This document shows positions 1 through 50,150 of a DNA stretch of 64,000 bases, piece after piece; within the stretch, counting starts at the first letter, position 1, and each line of letters begins with the position of its first letter. Position numbers and translations under genes: made by a program. The stretch spans positions 97,032,001 through 97,096,000 of the forward strand of contig CM059431.1 of assembly GCA_030390025.1 (NCBI GenBank), given 5' to 3'. Source of the DNA: Squalus acanthias (Eukaryota). Under the pieces are notes generated by a model, which did no database searches, was not told the origin of the DNA, and was given only the letters and a program-made list of their open reading frames with translations.

Positions 1-2566
1 AACCCAAACACGAAGCATTCTGGAACCCAAACAACAAGCGTTCCAGGACCCAAACACCAAGTGTTCTGGAACCCAAACACCAAGTGTTCCAGGACCCAAA
101 CACCAAGCGTTCCAGGACCCAAACACCAAGCGTTCCAGGAACCAAACCCCAACTGTTCTGGAACCCAAACACCAAGCATTCCAGGACCCAAACACCAAGC
201 ATTCCAGGAACCAAACCCCAACATTTCTGGGACCCAAACTCCAAATGTTCCAGGACCCCAACCCCAAGAGTTTGAGGACCTAAACACCAAGCGTTCCAGG
301 ACCCAAACACCAGGCGTTCTGGAACCCAAACACCAAAAGTTCCAGATTCCAAACACCAAGCATTCTGGAACCCAAACACCAAGCTTTCCGGGACCCAAAC
401 ACCAAGCGTTCCAGGACCCAAACACCAACTGTTCTGGAACCCAAACACCAAGCTTTCCAGGACCCAAACACCAACTGTTCTGGAACCCAAATACCAAGCG
501 ATCCAGGACCCAAACACCAAGCGTTCTGGAACCCAAACACCAAGCGTTCCAGGACCCAAGCACCAAGTGTTCCAGGACCCAAACACCAAGCATTCCAGGA
601 CCCAATCACCAAGCATTCCAGGACGCAAACCCCAAGCGTTCCAGGACCCAAACACCAAGCATTCTAGGACCCAATCACCAAGCAAACTGGGCCCCAAACA
701 CCAAGTGTTCCAAGACCCAAACACCAAGCGTTCCAGAACCCAAACACTAAGTGTTCTGGAACCCAAACACTAAGCGTTATGGTACCCAAACATCAAGCAT
801 TCCAGGACCCAATACCGAAGCATTCCGGAATCCAAATACCAAGCGACCCAGGACCCAAACACCAAGCATTCCAAGACCCAATCACCAAGCATTCTGGAAC
901 CCAAACACCAAGTTTTCTGGGACCCAAACACCAAGCGTTCCAGGACCCAAACACCAAGCAAACTGGGATCCATACCCCAAGCATTCCGGAACCCAAACAC
1001 AAAATGTTCCAGGACCCAAACACCAAGCATTCCAGGACACAAACCCCAATTGTTCTGGAACCGAAACACCTAGCTTTCCAGGACCCAAACACCTAACGTT
1101 CTGGAACACAAACATGAAGCATTCCAGGACCCAAACACCAAGCGTTCTGGAACCCAAACACCAAGCGTTCCAGGACCCAAACACCAAGCATACCGGAACC
1201 CAAACACCAAGCATTCCGGGACCCAAACACCTAACATTCTGGAACCCAAACACGAATCATTCCCGGACCCAAACACCAAGCGTGCTGGAACCCAAACACC
1301 AAGCATTCCAGGACCCAAACACCTAACGTTCTGGAACCCAAACACGAAGCATTCCAGGATCCAAACCCCAAGCGTTCCAGGACTCAACCACCAAGCAAAC
1401 AGGGAGCCAAACACCAAGTGTTCCAGGACGCAAACCCCAAGCGTTCCAGGACCCAAACACCAAGCATTCCAGGACCCAATCACCAAATGTTCCAGGACGC
1501 AAACCCCAAGCGTTCCAGGACCCAAATTCCAAGCATTCTAGGACCCAAACACCACGCAAACTGGGCCCCAAACACCAAGCGTTCCAGGATCCAAACACCA
1601 AGTGTTCCAAGACCCAAACACCAAGCGTTCCAGAACCCAAACACTAAGAATTCTGGAACCCATAACACTAAGTGTTATGGAACCCAAACATCAAGCATTC
1701 CAGGACCCAAACCCCAAGCGTTCCGGAACCCAAATACCAAGCGATCCAGGACCCAAACACTAAGCGTTCTGGAACACAAACACGAAGTGTTATGGAACCC
1801 AAACATCAAGCATTCCGGGACCCAAACCCCAAGCGTTCTGGAACCCAAATACCAAGCGATCCAGGACCCAAACCTTAACCATACTGGGACCCAAACACAA
1901 AGTGTTCTGGGAGCCAAACCCCAAATGTTCCACGACCCAAACAACAAGCGTTCCGGGACTCAAACACCAAGAGTTCCAGGACCCAAACCCAAAATGTGCT
2001 GGAACCCAAACACCAAATGTTCCAGGACCCAAACACCAAGCATTCCAGGATCCAAACACCAAGCATTCCGGAACCCAAACACCAAGCGTTTGAAACCCAA
2101 ACACCATGCGTTCCAGGACCAAAACACCAAGCATTCTGGAACCCAAACACTAAGCATTATGGAACCGAAACAACTTGCATTCAGGAACGCAAACACCAAG
2201 CATTCCAGAACCCAAACTCCAAGCGTTCTGGAACCCAAACTCCAAGCGTTCCAGGACAAAACACCAAGCATTCTGGAACCCAAACACAAAGCATTCCGGA
2301 ACTCAAGCACCAAGCGTTCCAGGACCCAAACACCAAGTGTTCTGGGACCAAAACACGAAGCTAACTGGGCCCCAAACACCAAGCATTCTGGAACCCAAAC
2401 ACCAAGCAAACTGGGCCCCAAACACCAAGCATTCTGGAAACCAAGCACCAAGCAAACTGGAACCCAAACACCAAGCATTCCAGGGCCCAAACACCAAACG
2501 TTCCAGGACCCAAACACCAAGCATTCTGGGACCCAAACACCAACTGTTCTGGGACCCAAACACCAA

Positions 2567-3459
2567 GGGGTAAAAATTCACTTGGTTGCGCCACCCGTTA
2601 GCGCCTTAAGAGGGCGCTAATGGGGCGCAAAGCCGCTAACGCCCGGGCGCAGCGATGTTTGCGCCGCTCGAGAACTTAACTTGAGATTGTGCGGCGGCGC
2701 TAAAACTTACCGCTGCGACCACCTGCGCGCGCAGATTGTGACGTCATTCCATGGTGCAACGCCCTTGGGGTGCCCCGTAGCGGAAATTGAGTGGCGCCCC
2801 CTGCCTTACCGCCTGGCGCTTCCAACGACCAGAAGACTGGAACGCTATCAATCGCTGTGGGGCTGGTGGGGGCGCTATTTAAAGGGGGCCTCTTCCTGTC
2901 TTTTATTGTTGGTGGCATTTTTGAACTACGCATTCTGAGAGAGAGAGGGAGAGACTTCTGGAGAGATTCAACGTTGTGTGAAGGAGTTTTGGGTACTGAG
3001 CAGCACTTTGCAGGTTCATTTTGAATTACCATTCCTTGTATCGATTTAGCAGAGACCGTGGGAGCTGCACTCTGAGCTCTTTGCCTGGTGCTCTCCATTG
3101 TTCTTTCCAGCACATTTGATGTGCAAGTCTCTCCAGGCCGAGATTCAAGGCAGCAATGAACAGGATGTGGATGGAAAGCAAGATTAACCAACCCCTTTAA
3201 GAACTGGCCCGTGCCATTGTGTGTGTGTTCCATTGCTGACTGACATTACATGAGCTTCGCCAGCGCTCCGAGTTAGCCCCTCACTGCTCGGCCTTTGCGC
3301 CTTAAGAGAGGTGTGCAGTGCCTGCTTTAGCGCTCCACTCACCTCCCGGGGCGGTAAAAGTGAAGTTTCCCGTCAGTGCCGATAATTAGCGCCAGGCGCT
3401 AATATTTGCGTCCGGACGATATTTGCGCCCCAAATGGGGTGCGACCTAATTTCTACCCC
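2567..3459 (+). mobile_element. Non-autonomous Harbinger (MITE type I), 893 bp
   Basis: TIRs GGGGTAAAAATT / AATTTCTACCCC; TSD CAA/CAA; both ends match the full-length elements. Confidence 0.95.
2739..2883 (+). promoter_or_regulatory. Putative left-end promoter of the Harbinger family: TGACGTCA (CRE-like, 2739-2746) and TATTTAAA (2876-2883)
   Basis: The same motifs lie upstream of the transposase in full-length copies and are retained in all three MITE types. Confidence 0.55.
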
Positions 3460-6672: not shown

Positions 6673-7568
6673 GGGGGAAAAATTCAGTCGCGCCCCGTTT
6701 GGGGCGCAAATATCGTCCGGGTGCAAAATTAGCGCCTGGCGCTAATTATCGCCACTGACTGGAAACTTCACTTTTATCGACGCCTGAGGTGATTGGAGCA
6801 CTAAATCAGGCGCTTCACACCTGTCTTAAGGCGCAAAGGCCGAGGAGCGAGGCGCTACCTCAGAGCGCTGGCGAAGCTCATGTAATGTCAGTCAGCAATG
6901 GAACACACACACAATGGCACGGGCCAGTTCTTAAAGGGGATGGTTAATCTTGCTTTCCATCCACATCCTACTCATTGCAGCCTTGAATCTCGGCCTGGAG
7001 AGACCTGCACATCAAATCTGCTGGAAAGAACAATGGAGAGTACGAGGCAAAGAGCTCAGAGTGCAGCCCCCACAGTCTCTCCTAAATCGATACAAGGAAT
7101 GGCAAATCAAAATGAACCTGCAAAGTGCTGCTCAGTACCCAAAACTCCTTCACACAACGTTGAAACTCTCCAGAAGTCTCTCTCTCTCTCTCTCTCTCAG
7201 AATGCGTAGTTCAAAAATGGCACCAACAATAAAGGGCAGGTAGCGGTCACCTTTAAATAGCGCTCCCCCTTTCCCTTCATGACTGCAGAATGCTCCCTTC
7301 AACCTGTCGTTGCTAGCGTCAGGCGGTAAGGCAGGGGGCGCCATGCAATATCCGCTCCGGGGCGATACCGGGGTGTTGTGCACTCGACTGACGTCACGAT
7401 CTGCCGGCGCAGGAGATCGTGGCGGTAGTGTTTAGCGCCGCCGCAAAATGTCTAGTTAATTTCGCGAGTGGCGCAAACTTCGCCGGGCCTGGGCGCTAGC
7501 TGCTTTGTGCCCCATTAGCGCCCTCTTAAGGCGTTAACGGGAGGCGCAACCAACTGAATTTTTCCCCC
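6673..7568 (-). mobile_element. Non-autonomous Harbinger (MITE type II), 896 bp
   Basis: TIRs GGGGGAAAAATT / AATTTTTCCCCC; TSD TAA/TAA; reverse orientation; left subterminal region diverged from type I. Confidence 0.95.
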
Positions 7569-8106
7569 TAAGTGTTATGGAACCCAAACACCAAGGGGTA
7601 AAAATTCACTTGGTTGCGCCTCCCGTTAGCACCTTAAGAGGGCGCTAATGGGGTGTTAAGCCGCTAACGCCCGGGCGCAGCGCTGTTTGCGCCGCTCGAG
7701 AACTTAACTTGAGATTGTGCGGCGGCGCTAAAACTTACCGCTGCGACCACCTGCGCGCGCAGATTGTGACGTCATTCCATGGTGCAACGCCCTTGGGGCG
7801 CCCCGGAGCGGAAATTGAGTGGCGCCCCCTGCCTTACCGCCTGGCGCTTCCAACGACCGGAAGACTGGAACGTTATCAATCGGTGTGGGGCTGGGGGGGG
7901 CGCTATTTAAAGGGGGCCTCTTCCTGTCTTTTTCTGTGGTCGACATTTATGCACCACTCGTTCTGAGAGAGAGAGAGAGATTCGGAGAGAGAGAGAGAGA
8001 GACTTCTACATTGACTCAATGCTTTGTGAGGTAGTTTTGCCGAGTTCATCCTAACTTTGTTGCTACTTTAGTTGCTGTACCTCATTACTTTTCTGGCAAA
8101 GAGAAT

Positions 8107-9269
8107 ATGGGGGCTGCAATGATTGGGGGCGTCGTCCTGCTCCAGCTGAATCGGAGGATAGTGAGACGCAGACAGAGAGTGGCAATGATGGTCAGACGGA
8201 GGAGGGCCATCAGGCGCATGTACAGGAGAGCTTACCCTCCCAGGGTATATCGTGAACAGCTCTCCTACATCCATATGTCCGAGGAGCTGTGTTTGCGAAG
8301 GCTGCGATTCAGCAAGGAGGTGGTCACTGAGCTCTGCCACCTGCTGCAGCCAGATCTGCAGCCTCAGCTGAGGTCCAGGACATCTCTGTCGGTGGCAGTG
8401 AAGGTCACAGTGGCTTTGAACTTCTACGCCACTGGCTCATTCCAAGCTGCTGTTGGGGACCTCGCCAATATCTCCCAGTTTGCGGTGCATTGCTGCATCC
8501 GGCAGGTCACCAATGCCCTCTTCAGAAGGAGACGAGACTTCATCTCTTTCCCTATGACCCCAGACAAGCAGCAGTGACCGTGCTCTGGGCTTTGTGAGGG
8601 TAGCGGGCTTCCCCATGGTGCAGGGCGCCATTGACTGCACGCATGTGGCTTTGCGTGCTCCGCGAGAGAATGCAGAGGAATTCAGGAACAGAAAGGGGTT
8701 CCATTCCTTGAATGTGCAGTTGGTCTGTGACCACAGACAGGTGATACTCGCTGTCAATGCCCACTATCCGGGCAGCTGCCACGATGCTTTCATCCTGCGC
8801 CAGACTACTGTGGCAGAACTTTTCGAGGCACCGCATCAGCCAGTTGGTTGGCTTCTGGGGGACAAGGGGTACGCATTGAGCACCTGGCTGATGACACCGC
8901 TCCGTACGCCAAACACCCCTGCTGAGCTGCGGTACAATGAAAGCCATCAAGCAACCAGGAACATTATTGAGCGCACAATCGGCGTGCTGAAACAACGGTT
9001 CCGCTGTCTGGACCATTCCGGAGGAGCCCTGCAGTACTCGCCTGAGCAAGTTTCGAACTTCGTAGTCGTGTGCTGCATGTTGCACAACATGGCAATCCTC
9101 AGGACCCAGCCAATGCCACCAGGCCTTGTAGCACCACCAGAGGAGGAGGAGGAAGAGGAGGAACAGGACGAGGACGATGATCATCAGCAGCACCAAGGCA
9201 GGAGGGCGGCCCACAATGGTCAAACTGCAAGGGCCTGTCCGTCAACGACTAATAGTAAGCCGCTTCTAG
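8107..9269 (+). pseudogene. Harbinger (HARBI1-like, DDE_Tnp_4) transposase, disrupted
   Basis: GAIDCTH / LLGDKGY / RNIIERTIG motifs. Relative to the intact copy at 34809 there are +1 insertions near 8574 (CAGCAGTGA) and near 9236. Confidence 0.92.
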
Positions 9270-9563
9270 GGCCCCTGCCATTGCTACAAACACTAATCAA
9301 CCCAGCACGCAACCCCTAAGCCGGCCAAGGCACCAATAATTCCAACCACCAGCCATGTATATTTTGAATACAGAAACTTATTTATTTTACAAACTCTGTG
9401 TGTGTCAATTCCTCATGACAAACTCATAGAAATAAACACAAAAAAACAGTCAATAACATAACTGGTTCTCACAACCTGGAGATAATGTCCAAAACACTAA
9501 ACAAAAGTTGGACCATGAACCTCGGCCTTTAATAAAAAAATGACCAGCATTTTGGCACACCTC

Positions 9564-11386
9564 CTACTTTTTGCCCTTCGAGGGTGATCTCCTTCCCTTG
9601 CGCACTTCCCCCCTTCTAACCCTACTGCTCCTCCGTAATGGGACCTCAGTGGCTGCAGCAAGGCTGGTGGAAGGCTGCTGCTTGTGAGACCCTGACACTG
9701 CAGATGCCCCTGAAGGACGGCCTCGACCACTTCTGGGCCTGGAGGGCCCGGCTGCAGACTGCACCAACTCTGCATGGGCGGCAGCAGTCTGTCCTACAGG
9801 CGGTGGCAAGTGCAGTGGAGAAGTGACAGTGTTGGCAGCAGGAATGCTGTCATCGTGAGAGAGGACAGCAACTCCCTGCTCGCCCGACACACTGGCACTC
9901 CCACGGGGCAGCACTTCAGCATCCGGAGCAATTTGCCGGAGAACAGATTGCTGGCCTGCTGCGGCGCGGTGACAGCCCCGGGGACATGTGCACGAACCAT
10001 CGAGGATGGCAGCAGTCAGTGCTCGCGTGGCCTCAATCTGAGTCTGCATGAGAGCAGTCTCAGATGGGTTCCTGGCAGCCAGTGACTGAATTGCAGCACT
10101 AAGCTGTAGTGTGGCATCCGCCTGTGCTACAGCGAAGTGCTCCACACTCCTTGCCAGTGACTCAATGCATTCGGGCACCCTTCCCACTGCACCCATGAGC
10201 TCAGTGTGCATGCCCACTGCCTGGCTGTTCATTTCTGCAATCAGCCGCTCCTCCTCTGCGTCCATTGCAGTAGGAGTGTCTGGCATACTCTCCCTCTGGG
10301 GAGAAGGCTCCCGTTCTTCCCTCCCCCCCCCATGGCGTTGCTGCAGCCCGCTGGGTCCTGGAGCTTCACCATCATCAGCCCCTTCCCCCCTGCTCCCCTC
10401 CGGGGAAGGCGTGTTCCCAGTGTGGGCATGGGCTTCCTCGGGAGAGGGTGGCACTGATGCTCCGGCTTCCTCTTCCTCCTCAGCTGCAGCATCACTCCCA
10501 GTGGCAGCTTCAGGGCCCGTCTCCTCAGCTGGTGAATCACCATCTGAAAGCAGGGAGGTACAAGAGTGGCTTTAGCGTGAGGACAGGGTGGCAGTAAGGG
10601 AGGAATAAGTGCAGCGAGTTAGCAAGTTGGATTGAAAGTGTCAAAGGCTGGTATTGTGAGGGACAAGTGGAAGGACAGAGGACAAAAAGGTGATGACCTT
10701 ACCATTGCTGTCCACAACGGGGTCGGCGTCCCCAGTGGCGACGGGACCGATCACCCGGCTTGCCACAATCCTGTGGACGCGCTCCTCCAGATCGCTGAGG
10801 GGTTGCAGCTGAAGCCGCCCTCCACCCGTCCGTTGCTGCTGTCTCCGATTATGAGCCAGCTTAGCCTGCAAGAAAAAGGACAGCATCTGAGTAAATATAC
10901 AGCCATGGTCTTGCCTGATGTGCCTCCCATAGGTGAATAGCCCTTACAATATGCAGCCATGGTCTTGCCTGATGTGCCTCCCATAGGTGAATAGCCCTTA
11001 CTGTATGCAAAGTGTGGAATGTGTGTGTGTGTTTGATGAAAGGGCCATAGGTGTTGGATGAGTGTTGTGCATTGGGGTTTTAAGACCCTCTGGCCATAGA
11101 GTGAGGTTGAGATGGAGGGATGGAGAGGTATTGAGAAAAAGCCACTCACCCTGACGACCCGAGTGAGGTCGTTGAACTTTTTGTGGCACTGAACATGGGT
11201 CCTGGGCACCATGCTCCTGGAGGAGACGCTCTGAGCCACCTCCCTCCACACTCTTCTGAACTCGCGTGGCAAAGGCCTCCTGCCACTCTCCGGGAACAGC
11301 ATGCATCGTCTGCGCTCCACTGCGTCAACCAGAGCATCCAAGGCCCGCTCGGTGAAGCGATGAGCGCGTTCTCTCACCCTCTCCAT
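9564..11386 (-). CDS. Harbinger Myb/SANT-like DNA-binding protein, 3 exons (11386-11150, 10865-10703, 10543-9564), ~459 aa
   Basis: Exon 1 carries RF..L..LV...W..VA..V......R...QC.KKF.DL (Myb/SANT-like); exon 2 carries RTGGG. GT-AG sites with compatible phases give 1380 nt in frame. Confidence 0.85.
10900..11007. repeat. 54-bp tandem duplication in intron 1 of the Myb-like gene (present in all four full-length copies)
   Basis: CAGCCATGGTCTTGCCTGATGTGCCTCCCATAGGTGAATAGCCCTTAC..TATG occurs twice. Confidence 0.9.
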
Positions 11387-12390
11387 GCTTGGCAGCAAAA
11401 TGAATTACAGGTCTCTCCAGGCTGAGATTCAAGGCTGCAATGAGCAGGGTGTGGCTGGGGAGCAAGTGGCCCCCCCTGCTTTAAGAAGTGTCCGGCGCAA
11501 TTGTGTCTGTGTTCCCTCACTAACTGGCAGCAGCTGCGCTGCGCTCGTGCGCTGAGGTAGCGCCTCACTCCTAGGCCTTTGCGCCTTAAGAGAGGTGTGC
11601 AGCGCCTAATTTAGCGCTCCACTCACCTCCCGGGGCGGTAAAAGTGAAGTTTCCTGTCAGTGCCGATAATTAGCGCCAGACGCTAATATTTGCGCCCGGA
11701 CGATATTTGCACCCCAAATGGGGCGCGACCTAATTTCTACCCCCAAGTGTTCCAGGACCCAAACACCAAGCGTTCTGGAACCCAAACAGCAAACGTTCTG
11801 GGACCCAAACCCCAAGTGTTCTGGACCCAAACACCAAGATTTCCAGGACCCAAACACCAAGCAAACTGGGACCCAAACCCCAAATGTTCTGGAACACAAA
11901 CACCAAACGTTCCGGGACCCAAACACCAAGCATTCCAGTAACCAAACACTAACTGTTCTGGGACCCAAACACCAAGTATTCTGGGAACCCAAACAGCAAG
12001 CGTTTCAGGACCCAAACACCAAGCGTTCCAGGACCCAAACCCCAACTGTTCTGGAACCCAAACACCAACCGTTCTGGAACCCAAACAGCAAGCCTTCCAG
12101 GAGCCAAACACCAAGCCAACTGGGCCCAAAACAGCAAGCGTTCGACGACCCAAACACCAAGCGTTCCGGGAACCAAACACCAAGCGTTCCAGGACCGAAA
12201 CACCAAGCAAACTGGGCCCCAAACACAAAGCGTTCCAGGACCCAAACACCAAGCAAACTGGGCCCCAAACACCAAGCATTCTAGAAATCAAACACCAAGC
12301 GTTCCAGGACCCAAACCCCAACCGTTCCGGAACCCAAACCCCAACTGTTCTGGAACCCAAACACCAAGCGTTCCAGGACCCAAACACCAG

Positions 12391-13150
12391 GGGGTAAAAA
12401 TTGAGTCGCGCCCCATTTGGGGCGCTAACCTCGCCGGGGCGCGACTTTTAGCGCCCCGAAAAAATTAGCGGCCCCGCGCCGGAACTTCAGTGGTTGCGCC
12501 CCAAGAGGGAAGCGGGGCGCAACTGGAAGCAGCCCGCATCCCTCTTGGGGCGCTGCGAGTGAATATCCTGGCGTTACGTGCCGCAGCGCCATGCGCTGCG
12601 GCACGTCGCGCCGCGGTATTGCAGGCCTTCCTCCCCTTCTTAAAGGGGCGGGACCCTGCGCAGCGCGAACCGGGGCCCAGCTGGGCCCCCAGGGATCGGG
12701 AGTGCCGGCAAAAGAGCCCGGCACTCAAGAGAAGTGCCGGGCTCTTGGAGCGCAGCCGGCACTTCACGGTGGGGGGGCTTCACGGGGGCCGGGGGCAGGT
12801 GCTGGCAGGCGGCCAGCAACAAAAATGGCCGCCTGCCACCTCCGCTTTAAATATCGATGCCCCGGCCGCACGTACGCCTCCCTGAACCCGTCGGACATAG
12901 CGTCTGGCGGTAAATCAGGGGGCGCGACTGAAGATCACGGCCGGGGCGCGAGCGGGGTGCTGCGCACGGCGATGACGTCATCGCCGGCGGCGCAGCGCCC
13001 CAGGGCGCTACCGGCTGCCGCCGCCGCTAACCTCCCACTAAATTTTTCGGGAGGCGTGGGCGGCGCTGCGCCCGGGCGTTAGCTGCTTTACGCCCATTAG
13101 CGCCCTCTTAAGGCGCTAACGGGAGGCGCAAGCAGCTGAATTTTTCCCCC
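12391..13150 (-). mobile_element. Non-autonomous Harbinger, distinct GC-rich family (type III), 760 bp
   Basis: TIRs GGGGTAAAAATT / AATTTTTCCCCC; flanks CAG/CAA; shares terminal sequence with the other elements but has a different interior. Confidence 0.9.
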
Positions 13151-21593: not shown

Positions 21594-21624
<31 letters not shown>

Positions 21625-21732
21625 GAAGAGGACGAGGAGGATGATCATCAGCAGCACCAAGGCGGGAGGGCGGCCCACAATGGTGAAACTGCAAGGGCCG
21701 TCCATCAACGGCTGATAGCAAGCCGCTTCTAG
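20564..21732 (+). pseudogene. Harbinger transposase with a -1 frameshift near 21048
   Basis: CTGGGCTTGCG here versus CTGGGCTTTGCG in the intact subfamily B copy; split ORFs 20495-21058 and 21070-21732; DDE motifs present. Confidence 0.92.
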
Positions 21733-35969: not shown

Positions 35970-36263
35970 GGCCCCTGCCATTGCTACAAACACGAATCAA
36001 CCCAGCACGCAACCCCTAAGCCGGCCAAGGCACCAATAATTCCAACCACCAGCCATGTATATTTTGAATACAGAAACTTATTTATTGTACAAACTCTGTG
36101 TGTGTCAATTCCTCATGACAAACTCATAGAAATAAACACAAAAAAACAGTCAATAACATAACTGGTTCTCACAACCTGGAGATAATGTCCAAAACACTAA
36201 ACAAAAGTTGGGCCATGAACCTCGGCCTTTAATAAAAAAATGACCAGCATTTTGGCACACCTC

Positions 36264-38173
36264 CTACTTTTTGCCCTTCGAGGGTGATCTCCTTCCCTTG
36301 CGCACTTCCCCCCTTCTAACCCTACTGCTCCTCCGTAATGGGACCTCAGTGGCTGCAGCAAGGCTGGTGGAAGGCTGCTGCTTGTCAGACCCTGACACTG
36401 CAGATGCCCCTGAAGGACGGCCTCGACCACTTCTGGGCCTGGAGGGCCCGGCTGCAGACTGCACCAACTCTGCATGGGCGGCAGCAGTCTGTCCTACAGG
36501 CGGTGGCAAGTGCAGTGGAGAAGTGACAGTGTTGGCAGCAGGAATGCTGTCATCGTGAGAGAGGACAGCAACTCCCTGCTCGCCCGACACACTGGCACTC
36601 CCACGGGGCAGCACTTCAGCATCCGGAGCAATTTGCCGGAGAACTGATTGCTGGCCTGCTGCGGCGCGGTGACAGCCCCGGGGACATGTGCACGAACCAT
36701 CGAGGATGGCAGCAGTCAGTGCTCGCGTGGCCTCAATCTGAGTCTGCATGAGAGCAGTCTCAGATGGGTTCCTGGCAGCCAGTGACTGAATTGCAGCACT
36801 AAGCTTTAGTGTGGCATCCGCCTGTGCTACAGCGAAGTGCTCCACACTCCTTGCCAGTGCCTCAATGCATTCGGGCACCCTTCCCACTGCACCCATGAGC
36901 TCAGTGTGCATGCTCACCGCCTGGCTGTTCATTTCTGCAATCAGCCGCTCCTCCTCTGCGTCCATTGCATTAGGAGTGTCTGGCATACTCTCCCTCTGGG
37001 GAGAAGGCTCCCGTTCTTCCCTCCCCCCCCCATGGCGTGGCTGCAGCCCGCTGGGTCCTGGAGCTTCACCATCATCAGCCCCTTCCCCCCTGCTCCCCCG
37101 TTCTTCCCTCCCCCCCCAATGGCGTTGCTGCAGCCCGCTGGGTCCTGGAACTTCACCATCATCAGCCCCTTCCCCCCTGCTCCCCTCCGGGGAAGGCGTG
37201 TTCCCAGTGTGGGCATGGGCTTCCTCGGGAGAGGGTGGCACTGATGCTCCGGCTTCCTCTTCCTCCTCAGCTGCAGCATCACTCCCAGTGGCAGCTTCAG
37301 GGACCATCTCCTCAGCTGGTGAATCACCATCTGAAAGCAGGGAGGTACAAGAGTGGCTTTAGCGTGAGGACAGGGTGGCAGTAAGGGAGGAATAAGTGCA
37401 GCGAGTTAGCAAGTTGGATTGAAAGTGTCAAAGGCTGGTATTGTGAGGGACAAGTGGAAGGACAGAGGACAAAAAGGTGATGACCTTACCATTGCTGTCC
37501 ACAACGGGGTCGGCGTCCCCAGTGGCGACGGGACCGATCACCCGGCTTGCCACAATCCTGTGGACGCGCTCCTCCAGATCGCTGAGGGGTTGCAGCTGAA
37601 GCCGCCCTCCACCCGTCCGTTGCTGCTGTCTCCGATTATGAGCCAGCTTAGCCTGCAAGAAAAAGGACAGCATCTGAGTCAATATACAGCCATGGTCTTG
37701 CCTGATGTGCCTCCCATAGGTGAATAGCCCTTACAATATGCAGCCATGGTCTTGCCTGATGTGCCTCCCATAGATAAATAGCCCTTACTGTATGCAAAGT
37801 GTGGAATGTGTGTGTGTGTTTGATGAAAGGGCCATAGGTGTTGCATGAGTGTTGTGCATTGGGGTTTTAAGACCCTCTGGCCATAGAGTGAGGTTGAGAT
37901 GGAGGGATGGAGAGGTATTGAGAAAAAGCCACTCACCCTGACGACCCGAGTGAGGTCGTTGAACTTTTTGCGGCACTGAACATGGGTCCTGGGCACCATG
38001 CTCCTGGAGGAGACGCTCTGAGCCACCTCCCTCCACACTCTTCTGAACTCGCGTGGCAAAGGCCTCCTGCCACTCTCCGGGAACAGCATGCATCGTCTGC
38101 GCTCCACTGCGTCAACCAGAGCATCCAAGGCCCGCTCGGTGAAGCGATGAGCGCGTTCTCTCACCCTCTCCAT
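36264..38173 (-). CDS. Myb/SANT-like protein, 3 exons (38173-37937, 37652-37490, 37330-36264), ~488 aa
   Basis: Same splice sites as the other copies; exon 3 has an in-frame 87-bp duplication. Confidence 0.85.
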
Positions 38174-38557
38174 GCTTGGCAGCAAAATGAATTACAGGTC
38201 TCTCCAGGCTGAGATTCAAGGCTGCAATGAGCAGGGTGTGGCTGGGGAGCAAGTGGCCCCCCCCCGCTTTAAGAAGTGTCCGGCGCCAGTGTGTCTGTGT
38301 TCCCTCGCTAACTGGCAGCAGCTGCGCTGCGCTCGTGCGCTGAGGTAGCGCCTCACTCCTAGGCCTTTGCGCCTTAAGAGAGGTGTGCAGCGCCTAATTT
38401 AGCGCTCCACTCACCTCCCGGGGCGGTAAAAGTGAAGTTTCCTGTCAGTGCCGATAATTAGCGCCAGGCGCTAATATTTGCGCGCGGACGATATTTGCGC
38501 CCCAAATGGGGCGCGACGTAATTTCTACCCCTAAGCATTCTGGAACCCAAACACCAA

Positions 38558-39452
38558 GGGGGAAAAATTGAGTTGGTTGCGCCTCCCGTTAGCGCCTTAA
38601 GAGGGCGCTAATGGGGCGCAAAGCAACTAGCGCCTGGGCGCAGCGATGTTTGCGCCGCTCGCGAACTTAACTAGACATTTTGCGGCGGCGCTAAACACTA
38701 CTGCCACGATCTCCTGCGCTGGCAGATCGAGACGTCAGTCGAGTGCGCAACGCCCCGGTATCGCCCCGGAGCGGATATTGAGTGGCGCCCCCTGCCTTAC
38801 CGCCTGACGCTAGCAACGACAGGTTGAGGGGAGCGTTCTGCAGTCAGGAAGGGAGAGGGGGAGCGCTATTTAAAGGTGACCGCTTCCTGCCTTTTATTGT
38901 TGGTGCCATTTTTGAACTCCGCATTCTGAGAGAGAGAGAGAGAGAGACTTCTGGAGAGATTCAACGTTGTGTGAAGGAGTTTTGGGTACTGAGCAGCACT
39001 TTGCAGGTTCATTTTGATTTGTCATTCCTTGTATCGATTTAGAAAAGAATGTGGGGGCTGCACTCTGAGCTCTTTACCTGGTACTCTCCATTGTTCTTTC
39101 CAGCAGATTTGATGTGCAGGTCTCTCCAGGCCGAGATTCAAGGCTGCAATGAGCAGGATGTGGATGGAAAGCAAGATTAACCATCCCCTTTAAGAACTGG
39201 CCCGTGCCATTGTGTGTGTGTTCCATTGCTGACTGACATCACATGAGCTTCGCCAGCGCTCTGAGGTAGCGCCTCGCTCCTCGGCCTTTGCGCCTTAACA
39301 CAGGTGTGAAGTGCCTGATTTAGTGCTCCAATCACTTCCAGGGGCGATAAAAGTCAAGTTTGCAGTCGGTGGCGATAATTAGCGCCAGGCGCTAATCTTT
39401 GCGCCCGGCCGATAATTGCGCCCCAAATGGGGCGATACTGAATTTCTCCCCC
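38558..39452 (+). mobile_element. Harbinger MITE type II, 895 bp
   Basis: TIRs; TSD CAA/CAA; one satellite unit away from the preceding element. Confidence 0.95.
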
Positions 39453-40421: not shown

Positions 40422-41312
40422 GGGGTAAAAATTCAGTTGGTTGCGCCTCCCGTTGCGCCTTAAGAGGGCGCTAATGGGGCGCAAAGTCGCTAATGCCCGG
40501 GCGCAGCGATGGTTGCGCCGCTCGGGAACTTAACTAGAGATTGTGCGGCGGCGCTAAACTTTACCGCTGCGACCACCTGCGCGCGCAGATTGTGACGTCA
40601 TTCCATGGTGCAACGCCCTTGTGGCGCCCCGGAGCAGAAATTGAGTGGCGCCCCCTGCCTTACCGCCTGGCGCATCCAACGACCAGAAGACTGGAACGCT
40701 ATCAATCGCTGTGGGGCTGGTGGGGGCGCTATTTAAAGGAGGCCTCTTCCTGTCTTTTATTGTTGGTGGCATTTTTGAACTACGCATTCTGAGAGCGAGA
40801 GGGAGAGACTTCTGGAGAGATTCAACATTGTGTGAAGGAGTTTTGGGTACTGAGCAGCACTTTGCAGGTTCATTTTCATTTGCCATTCCTTGTATCGATT
40901 TAGCAGAGACTGTGGGAGCTGCACTCTGAGCTCTTTGCCTGGTACTCTCCATTGTTCTTTCCAGCACATTTGATGTGCAAGTCTCTCCAGGCCGAGATTC
41001 AAGGCTGCAATGAACAGGATGTGGATGGAAAGCAAGATTAACCATCCCCTTTAAGAACTGGCCCGTGCCATTGTGTGTGTGTTCCATTGCTGACTGACAT
41101 TACATGAGCTTCGCCAGCGCTCTGAGTTAGCGCCTCACTCCTTGGCCTTTGCGCCTTAAGACAGGTGTGCAGCGCCTGATTTAGCGCTCCACTCACCTCC
41201 CAGGGCGGTAAAAGTGAAGTTTCCAGTCAGTGCCGATAATTAGCGCCAGGCGCTAATATTTGCGTCCAGACGATATTTGCGCCCCAAATGGGGCGCGACC
41301 TAATTTTCCCCC
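40422..41312 (+). mobile_element. Harbinger MITE type I, ~891 bp
   Basis: TIRs (right TIR 1 nt short); TSD CAA/CAA. Confidence 0.93.
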
Positions 41313-42487
41313 CAAATGTTTTGGGACCCAAACAACAAGCATTCTGAAACCCAAATACTAAGTGTTCTGGAACCCAAACACCAAACGTCTGGAACCCAAA
41401 CACCAAGCGTTCCGGTATTCAAACACAATGCATTCCAGACCCAAACTCCAAGTGTTCCGGGACCCAAACACCAAGCTTTCCGGAACCCAAACACCAGGTT
41501 TTCTGAGACCCAAACACAAGCGTTCCAGGACCCAAACACCAGCATTCCAGGACCCAAACACCAATCGTTCTGGAACCAAACACCAAGCGTTCCGGGACCC
41601 AAACACCAAGCATTCTGGAACCAAACACCAAGCGTTCTTGGACCCAAACAACAAGCGTTCCAGGACACAAACACCAGGATTTCTGGGACACAAACACCAA
41701 GCAAACTAGGACCCAAACACCAAGTGCACCAAGACCCAAACATCCAAGCATTCTGGAACCCAAACAGCAAGCGTTCTGGAACCCAAACACCAAGCGTTCA
41801 GGAACCCAAGCACCAAGTGTTCCGGGATTCAAACACAATGCGTTCCAGGACCCAAACTCCAAGCATTCCGGGACCCAAACACCAAGCTTTCTGGGACTCA
41901 AACACCAAGCGTTCTGGGACCCAAACACCAAGCGTTCTGGGACCCAAACACCATGTGTTCTGGAACCAAACACCAAGGGGGAAAAATTCAGTTGGTTGCG
42001 CCTCCCGTTAGCGCCTTAAGAGGTCGCAAATGGGGCGCAAAGCCGCTAGCGCCCGGGCGCAGCGATATTTGCGCCGCTCGGGAACTTAACTAGACATTGT
42101 GCGGCGGCGCTAAACTTTACCGCTACGACCACCTGCGCGCGCAGATTGTGACGTCATTCCATGGTGCAACGCCCTTGTGGCGCCCCGGAGCGGAAATTGA
42201 GTGGCGCCCCCTGCCTTACCGCCTGGCGCATCCAACGACCGGAAGACTGGAACGCTATCAATCGCTGTGGGGCTGGGGGGGGCGCTATTTAAAGGGGGCC
42301 TCTTCCTGTCTTTTTCTGTGGTTGACATTTTTGCACCACTCGTTCTGAGAGAGAGAGAGAGATTCGGAGAGAGAGAAAGAGAGACTTCTGCATTGAGTCA
42401 ACGCTTTGTGAGGTAGTTTTTTCTACTGATCCTAACTTCGCTGGTACTTTGGTTGCTGTCCTTCATAACTTTGCTTGCAAAGAGACT

Positions 42488-43645
42488 ATGGGGGCTGCAC
42501 TGAATGGGGGCGTCATCCTGCTCCAGCTGAATCGGAGGACACAGAGACGCAGAGAGAGAGTGGCAATGATGGCCAGACGGAGGAGGGCCAACAGGCGTCT
42601 GTACAGGAGAGCTCACCCTCCCAGGGTATATCGTGAACAGCTGTCCTACATTCATTTGTCTGAGGAGCTGTGTTTGCGAAGGCTGCAATTCAGCAAGGAG
42701 GTGGTCACTGAGCTCTGCCACCTGCTGCAGCCAGATCTGAGGTCCAGGACGTCTCTGTCGGTGGCAGTGAAGGTCACAGTGGCTCTCAACTTCTATGCTA
42801 CTGGCTCATTTCAAGCTGCTGCTGGGGACCTCGCCAATATCTCCCAGTTCACGGTGCATTGCTGCATCCGGCAGGTCACAAATGCCCTCTTTAAAAGGAG
42901 ACGAGAGTTCATCTCTTTCCCCATGACCCCAGACAAGCAGCGTGACCGCGCTCTGGGCTTTGCGAGGATAGCGGGCTTCCCCATGGTGCAGGGCGCCATT
43001 GACTGCACGCATGTGGCTTTGCGTGCTCCACATGAGAATGCCGAGGATTTCCGGAACAGAAAGAGGTTCCATTCCTTGAATGTTCAGTTGGTCTGTGACC
43101 ACAGACAGCTGATACTCGCTGTCAATGCCCACTATCCTGGCAGCTGCCACGATGCTTTCATCCTGCGCCAGACTACTGTGGCAGAACTTTTCGAGGCACC
43201 GCATCAGCCAGTTGGTTGGCTTCTCGGGGACAAGGGGTATCCATTGAGCACCTGGCTGATGACACCGCTCCGTACGCCCAACACCCCTGCTGAGCTGCGG
43301 TACAACGAGAGCCATCAAGCTACCAGGAACATCATTGAGCGCACAATCGGCGTGCTGAAGCAACGGTTCCGCTGTCTCGACCATTCTGGAGGAGCCCTGC
43401 AGTACTCGCCTGAGCGAGTATCCAACTTCGTAGTTGTGTGCTGCATGTTGCATAACATGGCAATCGTCAGTACCCAGCCAATGCCACCAGGCCTTGGAGC
43501 ACCACCAGAGGAGGAGGAGAAAGAGGAGGAAGAGGAGGAAGAGGACGAGGAGGATGATCATCAGCAGCACCAAGGCGGGAGGGCGGCCCACAATGGTGAA
43601 ACTGCAAGGGCCGTCCGTCAATGGCTGATAGCAAGCCGCTTCTAG
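42488..43645 (+). CDS. Harbinger DDE transposase, 385 aa
   Basis: Uninterrupted ORF from ATG 42488; DDE triad intact; 4-aa deletion (QPQL) and KGF>KRF relative to the other copies. Confidence 0.93.
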   Translation: MGAALNGGVILLQLNRRTQRRRERVAMMARRRRANRRLYRRAHPPRVYREQLSYIHLSEELCLRRLQFSKEVVTELCHLLQPDLRSRTSLSVAVKVTVALNFYATGSFQAAAGDLANISQFTVHCCIRQVTNALFKRRREFISFPMTPDKQRDRALGFARIAGFPMVQGAIDCTHVALRAPHENAEDFRNRKRFHSLNVQLVCDHRQLILAVNAHYPGSCHDAFILRQTTVAELFEAPHQPVGWLLGDKGYPLSTWLMTPLRTPNTPAELRYNESHQATRNIIERTIGVLKQRFRCLDHSGGALQYSPERVSNFVVVCCMLHNMAIVSTQPMPPGLGAPPEEEEKEEEEEEEDEEDDHQQHQGGRAAHNGETARAVRQWLIASRF

Positions 43646-43955
43646 GGCCCCTGCTGTGGAAATGGCTTCTGCCATTGCTAACAACATCAATGAACCCAGG
43701 ACGCAACCCCTAAGCCGGCCAAGGCACCAATGATTCCAAACACCAAACATGTATATTTTGAATACAAAAACTTATTTATTTTACAAACTCTGTGTGTGTC
43801 ATTTCCTCATGACAAACTCATAGAAATAAACACAAAAAAAGTCATTAACATAACTGGTTCTCACAACCTGGAGATAATGTCCAAAACACTAGACAAAAGT
43901 TGGACCACGAACCTCGGCCTTTAATAAAAAAATGACTAGCATTTTGTCACACCTC

Positions 43956-45775
43956 CTACTTTTTGCCCTTCGAGGGTGATCTCCTTCCCTTGCGCACTTC
44001 CCCCCTTCTAACCCTACTGCTCCTCCGTAATGGGACCTCAGTGGCTGCAGCAAGGCTGGTGGAAGGCTGCTGATTGTCAGACCCTGACACTGCAGATGCC
44101 CCTGAAGGACGGCCTCGACCAGTTCTGGGCCTGGAGGGCCCGGCTGCAGACTGCACCAACTCTGCATGGGCGGCAGCAGTCTGTCCTACAGGCGGTGGCA
44201 ACTGCAGTGGAGAAGTGACAGTGTTGGCAGCAGGAATGCTGTCATCGTGAGAGAGGACAGCAACTCCCTGCTCGACCGACACACTGGCACTCCCAAGGGG
44301 CAGCACTTCAGCATCCGGAGCAATCTGCTGGAGCACAGATTGCTGGCCTGCTGCGGCGCGGTGAGAGCCCCGGGGACATGTGAACGAACCATCGAGGTTG
44401 GCAGCAGTCAGTGCTCGCGTGGCCTCAATCTGAGTCTGCATGAGAGCAGTCAGAGATGGGATCACGGCAGTCAGTGACTGAATTGCAGCACTAAGCTTTA
44501 GTGTGGCATCCGCCTGTGCTACAGCGAAGTGCTCCACACTCCTTGCCAGTGACTCAATGCATTCGGGCACCCTTCCCACTGCACCCATGAGCTCAGTGTG
44601 CATGCCCACCGCCTGGGTGTTCATTTCTGCGATCAGCCGCTCCTCCTCTGCGTCCATTGCAGTAGGAGTCGCTGGCATACTCTCCCTCTGGGGAGAAGGC
44701 CCCCGTTCTTCCCTACCCCCATGGCGTTGCTGCAGCCCGCTGGGTCCTGGAGCTTCACCCTCATCAGACCCTTCCCCCCTGCTCCCCTCCAGGGAAGGCG
44801 TGTTCCCAGTGTGGGCATGGGCTTCCTCGGGAGAGGGTGGCACTGATGCTCCGGCTTCCTCTTCCTCCTCGGCTGCAGCTTCACTCCCACTGGCAGCTTC
44901 AGGGCCCGTCTCCTCAGCTGGTGAATCACCATCTGAAAGCAGGGAGGTACAAGAGTGGCTTTAGCGTGAGGACAGGGTGGCAGTAAGGGAGGAATAAGTG
45001 CAGCGAGTTAGCAAGTTGGATTGAAAGTGTCAAAGGCTGGTGTTGTGACGGACAAGTGGAAGGACAGAGGACAAAAAGGTGATGACCTTACCATTGCTGT
45101 CCAGAACGGGGTCGGCGTCTCCAGTGGCGACGGGACCGATCACCCGGCTTGCCACAATCCTGTGGACGCGCTCCTCAAGATCGCTGAGGGGTTGCAGCTG
45201 AGGCCGCCCTCCACCTGTCCGTTGCTGCTGTCTCCTATTATGCGCCAGCTTGGCCTGCAAGAAAAAGGACAGCATCTGAGTAAATATACAGCCATGGTCT
45301 TGCCTGATGTGCCTCCCATAGGTGAATAGCCCTTACTGTATGCAGCCATGGTCTTGCCTGATGTGCCTCCCATAGATGAATAGCCCTTACTGTATGCAAA
45401 GTGTGGAATGTGTGTGTGTGTTTCATGAAAGGGCCATAGGTGTTGGATGAGTGTTGTGCATTGGGGTTTTAAGACCCTCTAGCCATAGAGTGAGGTTGAG
45501 ATGGAGGGATGGAGAGGTATTGAGAAAAAGCCACTCACCCTGACGACCCGAGTGAGGTCGTTGAACTTTTTGCGGCATTGAACATGGGTCCTGGGCACCA
45601 TGCTCCTGGAGGAGACGCTCTGAGCCACCTCCCTCCACACTCTTCTGTACTCGCGTGGCAAAGGCCTCCTGCCACTCTCAGGGAAGAGTATACATCTTCT
45701 GCGCTCCACCGCGCCAACCAGAGCATCCAAGGCCTGCTCGGTGAAGCGCTGAGCTCGTTCTCTCACCCTCTCCAT
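43956..45775 (-). CDS. Myb/SANT-like protein, 3 exons (45775-45539, 45254-45092, 44932-43956), ~458 aa
   Basis: Conserved GT-AG junctions; 1377 nt in frame. Confidence 0.85.
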
Positions 45776-46320
45776 CCTTGGCAGCAAAATGGATTCACAG
45801 GTCTCTCCAGGCCGAGATTCAAGGCTGCAATGAGCAGGGTGTGGCTGGGGAGCAAGTTGGCCCCCCCTGCTTTAAGAACTGGCCGGCGCCAGTGTGTCTG
45901 TGTTCCCTTGCTAACTGGCAGCACCTGCGCTGCGCTCGCGCGCTGAGTTAGCGCCTCACTGCTCGGCCTTTGCGCCTTAAGACAGTGTGCAGCGCCTGAT
46001 TTAGCGCTCCACTCACGTCCCGGGGCGGTAAAAGTGAAGTTTCCAGTCAGTGGCGATAATTAGCGCCAGACGCTAATTTTTGCGTCCAGACGATATTTGC
46101 GCCCCAAATGGGGTGCGACCTAATTTTTTCCCCCAAGTGTTTCGGAACCCAAAGACCAAGCGTTTCGGAACCCAAACACCAAACGTTCTGGGATTGAAAC
46201 ACAAAGTGTTCCAAGACCCAAACACCAACCTTTCCGGGACCAAAACACCAAGCATTCTGAAACCTAAACACCAAACATTCCGGAACCCAAACACCAAGCG
46301 TTCCGGGACCCAAACACTAA

Positions 46321-47214
46321 GGGGTAAAAATTCACTTGGTTGCGCCACCCGTTAGTGCCTTAAGAGGGCGCTAATGGGGCGCAAAGCCGCTAACGCCCGG
46401 GCGCAGCGATGTTTGCGCCGCTCGAGAACTTAACTTGAGATTGTGCGGCGGCGCTAAAACTTACCGCTGCGACCACCTGCGCGCGCAGATTGTGACGTCT
46501 TTCCATGGTGCAACGCCCTTGGTGCGCCCCGTAGCGGAAATTGAGTGGCGCCCCCTGCCTTACCGCCTGGCGCTTCCAACGACCAGAAGACTGGAAGGCT
46601 ATCAATCGCTGTGGGGCTGGGGGGGGGCGCTATTTAAAGGGGGCCTCTTCCTGTCTTTTATTGTTGGTGGCATTTTTGAACTACGCATTCTGAGAGAGAG
46701 AGGGAGAGACTTCTGGAGAGATTCAACGTTGTGGGAAGGAGTTTTGGGTACTGAGCAGCACTTTGCAGGTTCATTTTGATTTGCCATTCCTTGTATCGAT
46801 TTAGCAGAGACCGTGGGAGCTGCACTCTGAGCTCTTTGCCTGGTGCTCTCCATTGTTCTTTCCAGCACATTTGATGTGCAAGTCTCTCCAGGCCGAGATT
46901 CAAGGCAGCAATGAACAGGATGTGGATGGAAAGCAAGATTAACCATCCCCTTTAAGAACTGGCCCGTGCCATTGTGTGTGTGTTCCATTGCTGACTGACA
47001 TTACATGAGCTTCGCCAGCGCTCCGAGTTAGCGCCTCACTGCTCGGCCTTTGCGCCTTAAGAGAGGTGTGCAGCGCCTGCTTTAGCGCTCCACTCACCTC
47101 CCGGGGCGGTAAAAGTGAAGTTTCCCATCAGTGCCGATAATTAGCGCCAGGCGCTAATATTTGCGTCCGGACGATATTTGCGCCCCAAATGGGGCGCGAC
47201 CTAATTTCTACCCC
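46321..47214 (+). mobile_element. Harbinger MITE type I, 894 bp
   Basis: TIRs; flanks TAA/CAA (mismatched). Confidence 0.94.
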
Positions 47215-47286
47215 CAAGTGTTCTGAGACCCAAACACCAAGCTTTCTGGGACCCAAACATGAAGCATTCCAGGACCCAAGCACCAA

Positions 47287-48181
47287 GGGGGAGAAATTCA
47301 GTATCGCCCCATTTGGGGCGCAATTATCGGCCAGGCGCAAAGATTAGCGCCTGGCGCTAATTATCACCTCCAACTGCAAACTTGGCTTTTATCGCCCCTG
47401 GAGGTGATTGGAGCGCTAAATCAGGCGCTTCACAACTGTCTTAAGGCGCAAAGGCCGAGGAGCGAGGCGCTACCTCAGAGCGCTGGCGAAGCTCATGTGA
47501 TGTCAGTCAGCAATGGAACACAGACACAATGGCACCAGCCAGTTCTTAAAGGGGAGGGTTGATCTTGCTCTCCATCAACATCCTGCTCATTGCAGCCTTG
47601 AATCTCGGCCTGGAGAGACCTGTACATCAAATCTGCTGGAAAGAACAATGGAGAGACCCAGGGAAAGAGCTCAGAGTGCAGCCCCCACAGTCTCTTCTAA
47701 ATCGATACAAGGAAGGGCAAATCAAAATGAACCTGCAAAGTGCTGCTCAGTACCCAAAACTCCTTCACACAGCGTTGAATCTCTCCAGAAGTCTCTCTCT
47801 CTCTCTCTCAGAATGCGTGGTGCAAAAATGTCACCAACAAAAAAAGGCAGGAAGCGGTCGCCTTTAAATAGCGCTCCCCCAGTCCCTTCCTGACTGCAAA
47901 ACGCTCCCCTCAACCTGTCGTTGCTAGCGGCAGGCGGTAAGGCAGGGGGCGCCACTCAATATCCGCTCCGGGGTGCTACCTGGAGCGTTGCGCACTCGAC
48001 TGACGTCACGAGCTGCCTGCGCAGGAGAGCATGGCAGTAGTGTTTAGCACCGCCGCAAAATGTCTAGTTAATTTCGTGAGTGGCGCAAACATCGCCGCGC
48101 ACGGGCACTAGTTGCTTTGCGCCCCATTAGCGCCCTCTTAAGGCGCTAACGTGAGGTGCAAACCAACTGAATTTTTCCCCC
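47287..48181 (-). mobile_element. Harbinger MITE type II, 895 bp
   Basis: TIRs; TSD CAA/CAA. Confidence 0.95.
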
Positions 48182-49219
48182 CAAGTGTTCCGGAACCCAA
48201 ACACCAAGGGTCCCGGAACCCAAACACCAAGGATTCTGGAACCCAAACACCAAGCGTTCCAGGACCCAAACACCAAGCTTTCTGGAACCCAAACACTAAG
48301 CATTCTGGAAGCCAAACACCAAGTATTTCGGGACCCAAACACCAAGCGTTCTGGAACTCAAACGCTAAGCGTTCTGGGACCCAAACACCAAGCGTTCCGG
48401 GACCCAAACACCAAGCGTTCTGTAACCCAAACACCAAGCGTTATGGAACGCAAGCACCAAGTGTTTCAGGACATCAACACCAAGCATTCTGGAACCCAAA
48501 CACTTAACGTTTCGGAACCCAAACACCAAACATTCCAGAACCTAAACACCAAGCGTTCTGGGATTCAAACACAAAACATTCCAGGACCCAAACACCAAGT
48601 GTTGTGGGACCCAAACACCAAGCGTTCCAGGACCCAAACATCAAGCATTCCAGGACCCAAATACCAAGCGTTCTGAAACCCAAACACCAAGTGTTTCAGA
48701 ATACAAACACCAAGCGTTCCAGAACCCAAACACCAAGCGCTCTGGAACCCAAACAACAAATGTTCAGAACCCAAACAACAAATGTTCCAGAACCCAAACA
48801 CCAAGCATTCCAGGACCCAAACACAAAGCGTTCCAGGACCCAAACACCAAGCGTCCCGGGACCCAAACACCAAGCATTCCGGGACCCAAACACCAAGCGT
48901 TCCGGGACCCAAACACCAAGCGTTCTGGGACCCAAACACCAAGTGTTCTGGAACCCAAACACCAAGCGTTCCGGAACCCAAACACCAAGCGTTCTGGAAC
49001 CCAAACACCAAGTGTTCTGGAACCCAAACACCAAGTGTTCCGGAACCCAAACACCAAGCGTTCTGGGACCCAAACACTAAGCAGTCTGGGACCCAAACAT
49101 CAAACGTTCCGGGGCCTAAACACTAAGCAGTCTGGGGCCCCTTTCTTTGAAGTCTTGGCGAAGTTCTTTGTGGACCACTCAACACATCCTGTCACACTCA
49201 CCTGGAGGGGAAAGTGGAC

Positions 49220-50095: not shown

Positions 50096-50150
50096 AATAG
50101 AATGTACACAGAGTGTGGATGAAAAATCCAGAACGTACAGTGACAGGAAA

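Follow-up and report, generated by a model that had tools for sequence, protein, structure and literature searches.

A target preference that reaches beyond the 3 bp duplicated at the target site (target site duplication, TSD) is described as a feature of all characterised PIF/Harbinger transposons, the preferred target spanning 9 bp for plant elements and 15 bp for vertebrate ones, and their excision is usually precise (PMC2836001). Maize PIF/mPIF and rice Ping/Pong/mPing combine a requirement for two proteins with precise excision, and for the superfamily it is left open which of the two, transposase or Myb-like protein, contacts the target (PMC2836001). In zebrafish, the target of Harbinger3_DR is the palindromic AAACACCWGGTCTTT, AAACAC-CWG-GTCTTT (PMC3016246). 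The elephant shark, the only cartilaginous fish surveyed, yielded no detectable Harbinger, and other species were called for (PMC9179366). Here, we analyse a window of 64,000 nucleotides from Squalus acanthias (GenBank assembly GCA_030390025.1, contig CM059431.1, positions 97,032,001 to 97,096,000 of the forward strand), in which a tandem array of 23-bp units, satellite A, is interrupted by 17 elements of one PIF/Harbinger family.

[quoted passage not shown] The zebrafish target has the left half AAACAC, identical to the satellite A half-site, and the right half GTCTTT, in agreement with the graded consensus G-W-S-T-Y-T derived below (PMC3016246). Compared by published target consensus alone, the two differ in their TSD, which is A/T-rich here and CWG in zebrafish, and in the form of the preference, a graded 8.9-bit consensus over many contexts here and one near-fixed sequence there. 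[quoted passage not shown] In protein comparisons, the DDE region matches HARBI1-like genes best. Unlike the domesticated single-copy HARBI1, the open reading frame (ORF) found here lies within a multi-copy element that is bounded by terminal inverted repeats (TIRs), flanked by TSDs and equipped with a Myb-like partner. Palindromic targets that extend beyond the TSD are already documented as a PIF/Harbinger hallmark, and the family is another member with known behaviour. Our literature search found no paper on a satellite-targeting Harbinger family, nor one that reports such a family from sharks, which is not proof of absence.

Results

Seventeen elements share one register of satellite A

From unit counts in the upstream 50 kb, the beginning of satellite A lies about 4.5-5 kb before the window. 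Scanning for TIRs, we found exactly 17 elements, at 2567-48181. They are listed below together with the array; both TSD copies are given, followed by the complete target or its right half-site.

1..49128, unstranded: satellite A, 23-bp unit with consensus ACCCAAACACCAAGCGTTCCGGG, broken up by the 17 elements (Tandem Repeats Finder, TRF)
2567..3459, +: element 1, MITE of subfamily I, 893 bp; TSD CAA/CAA; AAACAC-CAA-GTGTTC
6673..7568, -: element 2, MITE of subfamily II; TSD TAA/TAA; AAACAC-TAA-GTGTTA
7595..11743, +: element 3, coding copy, 4149 bp; TSD CAA/CAA; GTGTTC; transposase frame split
12391..13150, -: element 4, 760-bp element; TSD CAG/CAA; GCGTTT
15315..16208, -: element 5, MITE of subfamily I; TSD CAA/CAA; GCATTC
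20052..24222, +: element 6, coding copy, 4171 bp; TSD CAA/CAA; GTGTTC; transposase frame split
24592..25483, +: element 7, MITE of subfamily II; TSD CTA/CTA; GTGTTC
29303..30198, +: element 8, MITE of subfamily I; TSD CAA/CAA; GCATTC
30294..31189, -: element 9, MITE of subfamily I; TSD CAC/CAA; GCATTC
32110..33006, +: element 10, MITE of subfamily I; TSD TAA/TAA; AAGCAC-TAA-GTGTTT
33286..34178, -: element 11, MITE of subfamily II; TSD CAA/CAA; GGGTCC; duplicate of the element 17 event
34297..38531, +: element 12, coding copy, 4235 bp; TSD TAA/TAA; GCATTC; open transposase ORF
38558..39452, +: element 13, MITE of subfamily II; TSD CAA/CAA; GTATTT
40422..41312, +: element 14, MITE of subfamily I; TSD CAA/CAA; AAGCAC-CAA-ATGTTT
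41977..46133, +: element 15, coding copy, 4157 bp; TSD CAA/CAA; GTGTTT; open transposase ORF
46321..47214, +: element 16, MITE of subfamily I; TSD TAA/CAA; GTGTTC
47287..48181, -: element 17, MITE of subfamily II; TSD CAA/CAA; AAGCAC-CAA-GTGTTC

All 17 carry the ends GGGG(T/G)A(A/G)AAATT ... AATTT(C/T)T(A/C)CCCC plus a 3-bp duplication, whose two copies are identical in 14 cases and unequal in elements 4 (CAG/CAA), 9 (CAC/CAA) and 16 (TAA/CAA). Every element sits in the same register of the unit, directly after AAACAC (13 elements) or AAGCAC (4). Eleven lie on the plus and six on the minus strand; at a symmetric target site, both orientations are to be expected. By size, they divide into four elements of 4.15-4.24 kb and 13 of 0.76-0.90 kb. 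The long copies form two pairs (98.3% identity within a pair, about 95% between pairs), and the short ones comprise seven MITEs of subfamily I (96-99% alike), five of subfamily II (90-98%) and one divergent 760-bp element. The 17 elements belong to one PIF/Harbinger family, with four coding copies of about 4.2 kb and 13 non-coding, Tourist-like MITEs.

Insertions favour units that complete a palindrome

A preliminary description of this stretch had read the five bases after the TSD as GTGTT in nine insertions, GCATT in four and GCGTT, GTATT, ATGTT and GGGTC in one each, counts that the TIR scan reproduced exactly. GTGTT follows elements 1, 2, 3, 6, 7, 10, 15, 16 and 17, GCATT follows elements 5, 8, 9 and 12, and the single variants belong to elements 4 (GCGTT), 13 (GTATT), 14 (ATGTT) and 11 (GGGTC). 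The TSDs vary as described there, mostly CAA, with TAA and CTA besides.

As background, we parsed 1038 unoccupied units from the array, including its upstream stretch outside the window. GCGTT (284) and GCATT (216), previously judged by eye to be the commonest variants, indeed lead the count, followed by GTGTT (112, 10.8%) and GCAAA (67). Against this background, the preference for GTGTT that had been proposed was borne out by Fisher test (9/17 vs 112/1038, odds ratio 9.3, p=2.8e-5). It held against units with an intact AAACAC-(C/T)(A/T)A, of which 48 of 533 carry GTGTT (p=9.4e-6), and against a local background of the 40 nearest units per insertion, from which 1.6 GTGTT flanks were expected (probability of at least nine, 1.5e-5). 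The absence of insertions before GCAAA, also noted earlier, is real (0/17 vs 67/1038), though not significant alone, with about 1.1 expected.

Scanning the unit position by position, we found the strongest difference between occupied and unoccupied units at base 2 of the right half-site, where T is present in 11/17 vs 221/1038 (p=1.6e-4), and the second strongest at base 6, again for T (5/17 vs 50/1038, p=0.0012). These are the two bases that complete a palindrome with AAACAC. TAA units, with T at TSD position 1, are mildly over-used as well (3/17 vs 45/1038, p=0.04). The left half AAGCAC is also enriched at insertions (4/17 vs 19/1038, p=3.4e-4). We rejected it as a true preference: 10 of the 19 unoccupied AAGCAC units have GTGTT too, so that the excess reflects linkage (hitch-hiking), and the genome-wide matrix described below disfavours G at this position (6/51).

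The same half-sites adjoin copies across the genome

An exact 20-mer of the satellite A unit has 19 matches in the 3.71-Gb assembly, all 19 in one array at C7:97,028,806-97,080,948, and pattern searches of the assembly found satellite A and its junctions nowhere outside this locus. There are therefore no further satellite insertions to count. The family itself is not satellite-specific. For element 1, the genome yields more than 2000 candidate matches; the 40 that were scored are element 1 itself and 39 copies at 99% identity, and 29 dispersed loci of this MITE are surrounded by unrelated DNA outside satellites, their TSDs varied and A/T-rich. With thousands of copies, 99%-identical copies and two open transposase ORFs, the family looks very young.

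To quantify the flanks, we counted exact patterns over the whole genome, using a 17-mer of the B end (9252 occurrences) and a 19-mer of the A end (5142). Background 5-mer frequencies came from about 199 kb of non-element DNA and were similar in two subsets.

B end, NNN-GTGTT: 482/9252 (5.2%; 6 in the window); background 0.108%; about 48-fold
B end, NNN-GCATT: 19/9252; background 0.104%; 1.9-fold
B end, NNN-GCGTT: 5/9252; background 0.052%; 1.0-fold
A end, AACAC-NNN: 285/5142 (5.5%); background 0.108%; about 51-fold
A end, AATGC-NNN: 14/5142; background 0.104%; 2.4-fold
A end, AACGC-NNN: 6/5142; background 0.052%; 2.2-fold

The palindrome-completing half-site is enriched about 50-fold at both ends of the element, and the commoner satellite variants only about 1-2.4-fold.

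A symmetric target matrix predicts the satellite insertions

To derive a target matrix independently of the satellite, we examined 59 dispersed loci; nine lacked a complete end pair and one contained two pairs, which left 51 off-satellite sites, 43 of them with identical TSD copies. The leading bases at each position, counted from the element end, are given below (n=51).

Position -9: A 27; position +9: T 29
Position -8: G 25, A 21; position +8: C 26, T 21
Position -7: A 42; position +7: T 49
Position -6: C 20, G 15; position +6: G 29, C 9
Position -5: A 30, T 15; position +5: A 22, T 22
Position -4: C 38; position +4: G 38

The left matrix and the reverse complement of the right one correlate with r=0.94 (0.91 when similar contexts are collapsed to 44). 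After symmetrisation, the consensus is AGACAC-TAA-GTGTCT, or A-R-A-S-W-C / W-W-W / G-W-S-T-Y-T in graded form, and holds 8.9 bits of information, 3.7 in each 6-bp half-site and 1.5 in the TSD. As a check for compensation between the half-sites, the left and right scores were compared and show a correlation of -0.25 over the 51 sites (p=0.08). The TSD is nearly all A/T in dispersed sites (TAA, TTA, ATA, AAA, TAT), with C at its first position in 4/51. The earlier proposal that specificity lies in symmetrically read 6-bp half-sites rather than in the TSD was essentially right: the correlation and the enrichment at both ends support the symmetric half-sites, but the A/T-rich TSD contributes as well.

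Applied to satellite A, the matrix separates occupied from unoccupied units, with median scores of 12.5 vs 8.9 (area under the receiver operating characteristic curve (AUC) 0.79, Mann-Whitney p=2.1e-5); without element 11, the AUC is 0.82 (p=6.1e-6). The over-used T at half-site bases 2 and 6 and at TSD position 1 all point in the direction of the matrix. Taking insertion probability as proportional to 2^score, 16 events are expected to comprise 9.9 at GTGTT, 4.4 at GCGTT or GCATT, 0.0 at GCAAA and 1.6 at other variants, and the 16 observed events comprise 9, 5, 0 and 2, respectively. The enrichment in the satellite and the palindromic preference across the genome, each observed directly, thus also agree quantitatively.

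Sites of at least 12 bits number 110 (nine of them occupied) in an estimated 25 kb or so of satellite, vs three in 197 kb of other DNA, a density about 300 times higher in the satellite, although this ratio is rough given the very few background sites. Their occupancy is about 8% in the satellite and, assuming some 10,000-15,000 family copies in total, very roughly 4-6% genome-wide. Since such sites are far denser in the array at a similar occupancy, the unit sequence alone may account for the pile-up of insertions.

Coding capacity and family assignment

Two coding regions were identified in element 3.

8558..9319, +: DDE_Tnp_4 region (Pfam PF13359, E=5.3e-40; PF04827, E=4.9e-11)
10751..11386, -: Myb/SANT-like ORF, 211 amino acids from the first Met (Pfam PF13873 Myb_DNA-bind_5, E=8.1e-8)

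The PF13873 match extends over 10751-11404 on the minus strand, convergent with the transposase, and the placement of the DDE and Myb-like ORFs on opposite strands corresponds to the two-gene layout of PIF/Harbinger. Open transposase ORFs are present in elements 12 (386 amino acids, 34809-35969) and 15 (385 amino acids, 42488-43645). The Myb-like ORF measures 211 amino acids in elements 3 and 6 and 164 in element 12, and falls below the 150-amino-acid listing threshold in element 15. The best named protein matches to the DDE region are 'putative nuclease HARBI1' of sharks (up to 63% identity), followed by a frog and a lungfish, with an overall range of 48-63% identity (E 3.8e-79 to 3.3e-47).

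A DDE_Tnp_4/Plant_tran-type transposase, a Myb/SANT-like second ORF, a 3-bp TSD, TIRs, a target preference beyond the TSD and the mobilisation of short non-coding derivatives, here 13 short copies with the TIRs of the coding copies, all agree with the superfamily. Two dimensions depart from the usual values: the TIR of 12 bp, with 11/12 positions matching in the three copies compared, is shorter than the usual 25-50 bp (PMC9179366), and the MITEs, at about 0.9 kb, exceed the 100-500 bp stated for such elements (PMC2836001).

Organisation of the array and neighbouring repeats

Within satellite A (1-49128), the decay products of GCGTT are uneven in the background, with 216 GCATT vs 112 GTGTT units, and the periods called by TRF include 46 and 69 bp, with GCGTT and GCATT in alternation. 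For these two reasons, GCATT looks like a piece of an older higher-order repeat and not like recent decay. We rejected an origin of satellite A from the element, as none of the four elements checked (1, 3, 4 and 12) contains a satellite-like core.

Three further repeats follow the array.

50144..50444, unstranded: short block of the satellite-B-type 23-bp unit, directly before the next repeat
50445..50751, unstranded: tandem repeat with a 46-bp unit, 6.7 copies at 93% matches, located between satellites A and B
54942..58441, unstranded: satellite B, a related 23-bp unit, AAACAC-CAG/CAA-GCAAAC (TRF)

Satellite B contains no insertions and no site of at least 8 bits, its top matrix score being 6.4.

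Further observations on individual insertions

Element 4 (12391-13150) carries the TIRs and subterminal sequence of the family around an interior that can be aligned to the other MITEs only to about 59%; it constitutes a distinct non-autonomous lineage with the same ends. Elements 2 and 3 (7568-7595) and elements 12 and 13 (38531-38558) are each exactly one satellite unit apart, 26 bp including the TSD. Each of these pairs consists of one 4.2-kb copy and one subfamily II MITE, in differing order and orientation. The spacing could be due to chance in a dense target field or to a preference for sites beside a resident copy.

Recurrent contexts were also seen among the dispersed sites. Five of the 51 (L006, L007, L023, L026 and L059) are inserted at one shared position within another repeat, …AAGCCTGAAGGC-TTT / GTGTC TTAATGC…; the TCT of both TSD copies at L023 speaks for a hot spot struck independently and not for copies of one composite. 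Other recurrent contexts are AACTC-TAT-GACTC and (A/G)ACAC-AAA-GAGTC. At L011 (C4:156.63 Mb), the MITE lies in the perfect palindrome AACTT-TAA-AAGTT, whose flanks resemble internal sequence of another family copy, so this may be a self-nested insertion. L005 and L017 (C28:28.069 and 28.076 Mb) are MITEs 6.8 kb apart with the same flanks in a tandem repeat, unit …AGAGATACAGAGTCACTCCCCATC…, and probably stem from one insertion that was duplicated within a second satellite-like array.

Discussion

Very probably, these insertions are the work of a PIF/Harbinger family that prefers a two-fold symmetric target of 15 bp and for which satellite A forms a field of good targets. The family integrates through a 3-bp staggered cut, favouring targets close to AGACAC-TAA-GTGTCT. 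Each satellite A unit offers a near-invariant and near-optimal left half, AAACAC, with CAA as a TSD that is tolerated and a right half that varies. With a near-optimal site in every unit, the array acts as a dense target field, and the variation of the right half as a natural target library. Units that complete the palindrome (GTGTT, at best GTGTTT) are struck about ten times more than the commoner GCGTT and GCATT units, and GCAAAC units, all of satellite B included, are not struck. The symmetry would reflect a dimeric complex, each protomer of the transposase reading one 6-bp half-site, with or without the Myb-like partner; this dimeric reading is what we infer from the sequence pattern.

Could the flanks have acquired their bias after insertion? 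If insertion were blind to the right flank, GTGTT might have arisen by later CpG decay of GCGTT beside methylated elements. GTGTT and GCATT are indeed the two deamination products of GCGTT and make up 13 of the 17 flanks, and the CpG-bearing GCGTT itself is depleted at insertions (1/17 vs 284/1038, one-sided p=0.03). Deamination yields both products equally, however, and the flanks show them at 9:4 vs 112:216 in the background (binomial p=0.0105), for which reason we reject decay as the source. Were every GCGTT to decay, GTGTT would still reach only 24.5% (p=0.011 for 9/17), so the enrichment stands after the correction for CpG decay that had been suggested. Elements 1 and 16 (98.4% identical) already have GTGTT flanks, element 1 is 99% identical to dispersed copies, and the same preference is found at thousands of non-satellite sites without an implied GCGTT precursor. 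Decay is thus a highly improbable explanation. An equally implausible one is that segmental or higher-order-repeat duplication copied a few insertions along with their flanks, so that the nine GTGTT flanks represent a founder effect. Satellites do amplify in blocks, and elements 11 and 17 clearly trace to a single event: rare variants of the left flank are common to both, their sequences are 97.9% identical, and the right flank of element 17 equals that of element 11 plus one extra unit, which begins with GTGTT. The two are one insertion copied by local duplication, with one satellite unit missing beside element 11. In the flank comparison, though, no other pair was alike beyond ordinary unit similarity, the next best being elements 2 and 12, a MITE on the minus strand and a 4.2-kb copy on the plus strand. 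The TSDs differ (CAA, TAA, CTA), the insertions represent both orientations and no fewer than five sequence groups, and with element 11 dropped the bias is still 9/16 (p=1.5e-5).

Integration might also be unbiased and retention biased, if copies at imperfect sites were excised or lost more often. Excision in PIF/Harbinger is precise and traceless (PMC2836001), and past excisions in the array would therefore be invisible; we found no footprint-like duplicated TSDs in the array, which is compatible with precise excision. Against this explanation, very young copies of 99% identity are already biased genome-wide. Excision in the described systems depends on the element ends and not on host flanks beyond the TSD, which also speaks against it. 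Moreover, reconstructed Harbinger3_DR integrates into its palindromic consensus (PMC3016246). We regard biased retention as very improbable.

Several points nevertheless weigh against a symmetric target preference as the explanation. The copies present today are insertions minus excision and loss, and a bias in insertion is inseparable from one in retention by sequence alone. The satellite provides only 16 independent events. The matrix derives from 51 sites of the youngest subfamily, some of them in other repeats (seven collapse as near-identical), and the scores of these training sites are self-scored. Finally, the additive matrix inverts the minor classes, with 3.6 GCGTT and 0.9 GCATT insertions expected and one and four observed, respectively.

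This inversion has a counterpart across the genome, where half-sites with a CpG (GCGTT/AACGC) are used about five times less than the additive matrix predicts and the CpG-bearing share of GCRTT-type flanks is 11/42 vs an expected 66% (p=1.6e-7). In the satellite, occupancy is 1/285 for GCGTT vs 4/220 for GCATT (p=0.17). Avoidance of methylated CpG, non-additive recognition and decay after insertion could each contribute to this under-use. That target choice itself is sensitive to CpG, plausibly CpG methylation, within the half-site is a tentative and rather doubtful idea. If true, the single-locus satellite would offer a natural read-out: where the element lands would be decided by the unit variants together with their methylation, and the array would be a harmless sink for a vertebrate DNA transposon.

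Natural data alone reveal the 15-bp palindrome read by this vertebrate PIF/Harbinger family, and the match of its half-site with that of Harbinger3_DR suggests that half-site specificity is conserved across distant fishes. As a young family, it may be possible material for the study of sequence-directed integration by a cut-and-paste transposase. The Squalus acanthias family also helps to fill the cartilaginous-fish gap in the Harbinger survey (PMC9179366). At this locus, a locus-specific satellite would have become a transposon sink purely through the sequence of its unit, and the array has been fragmented as a result.

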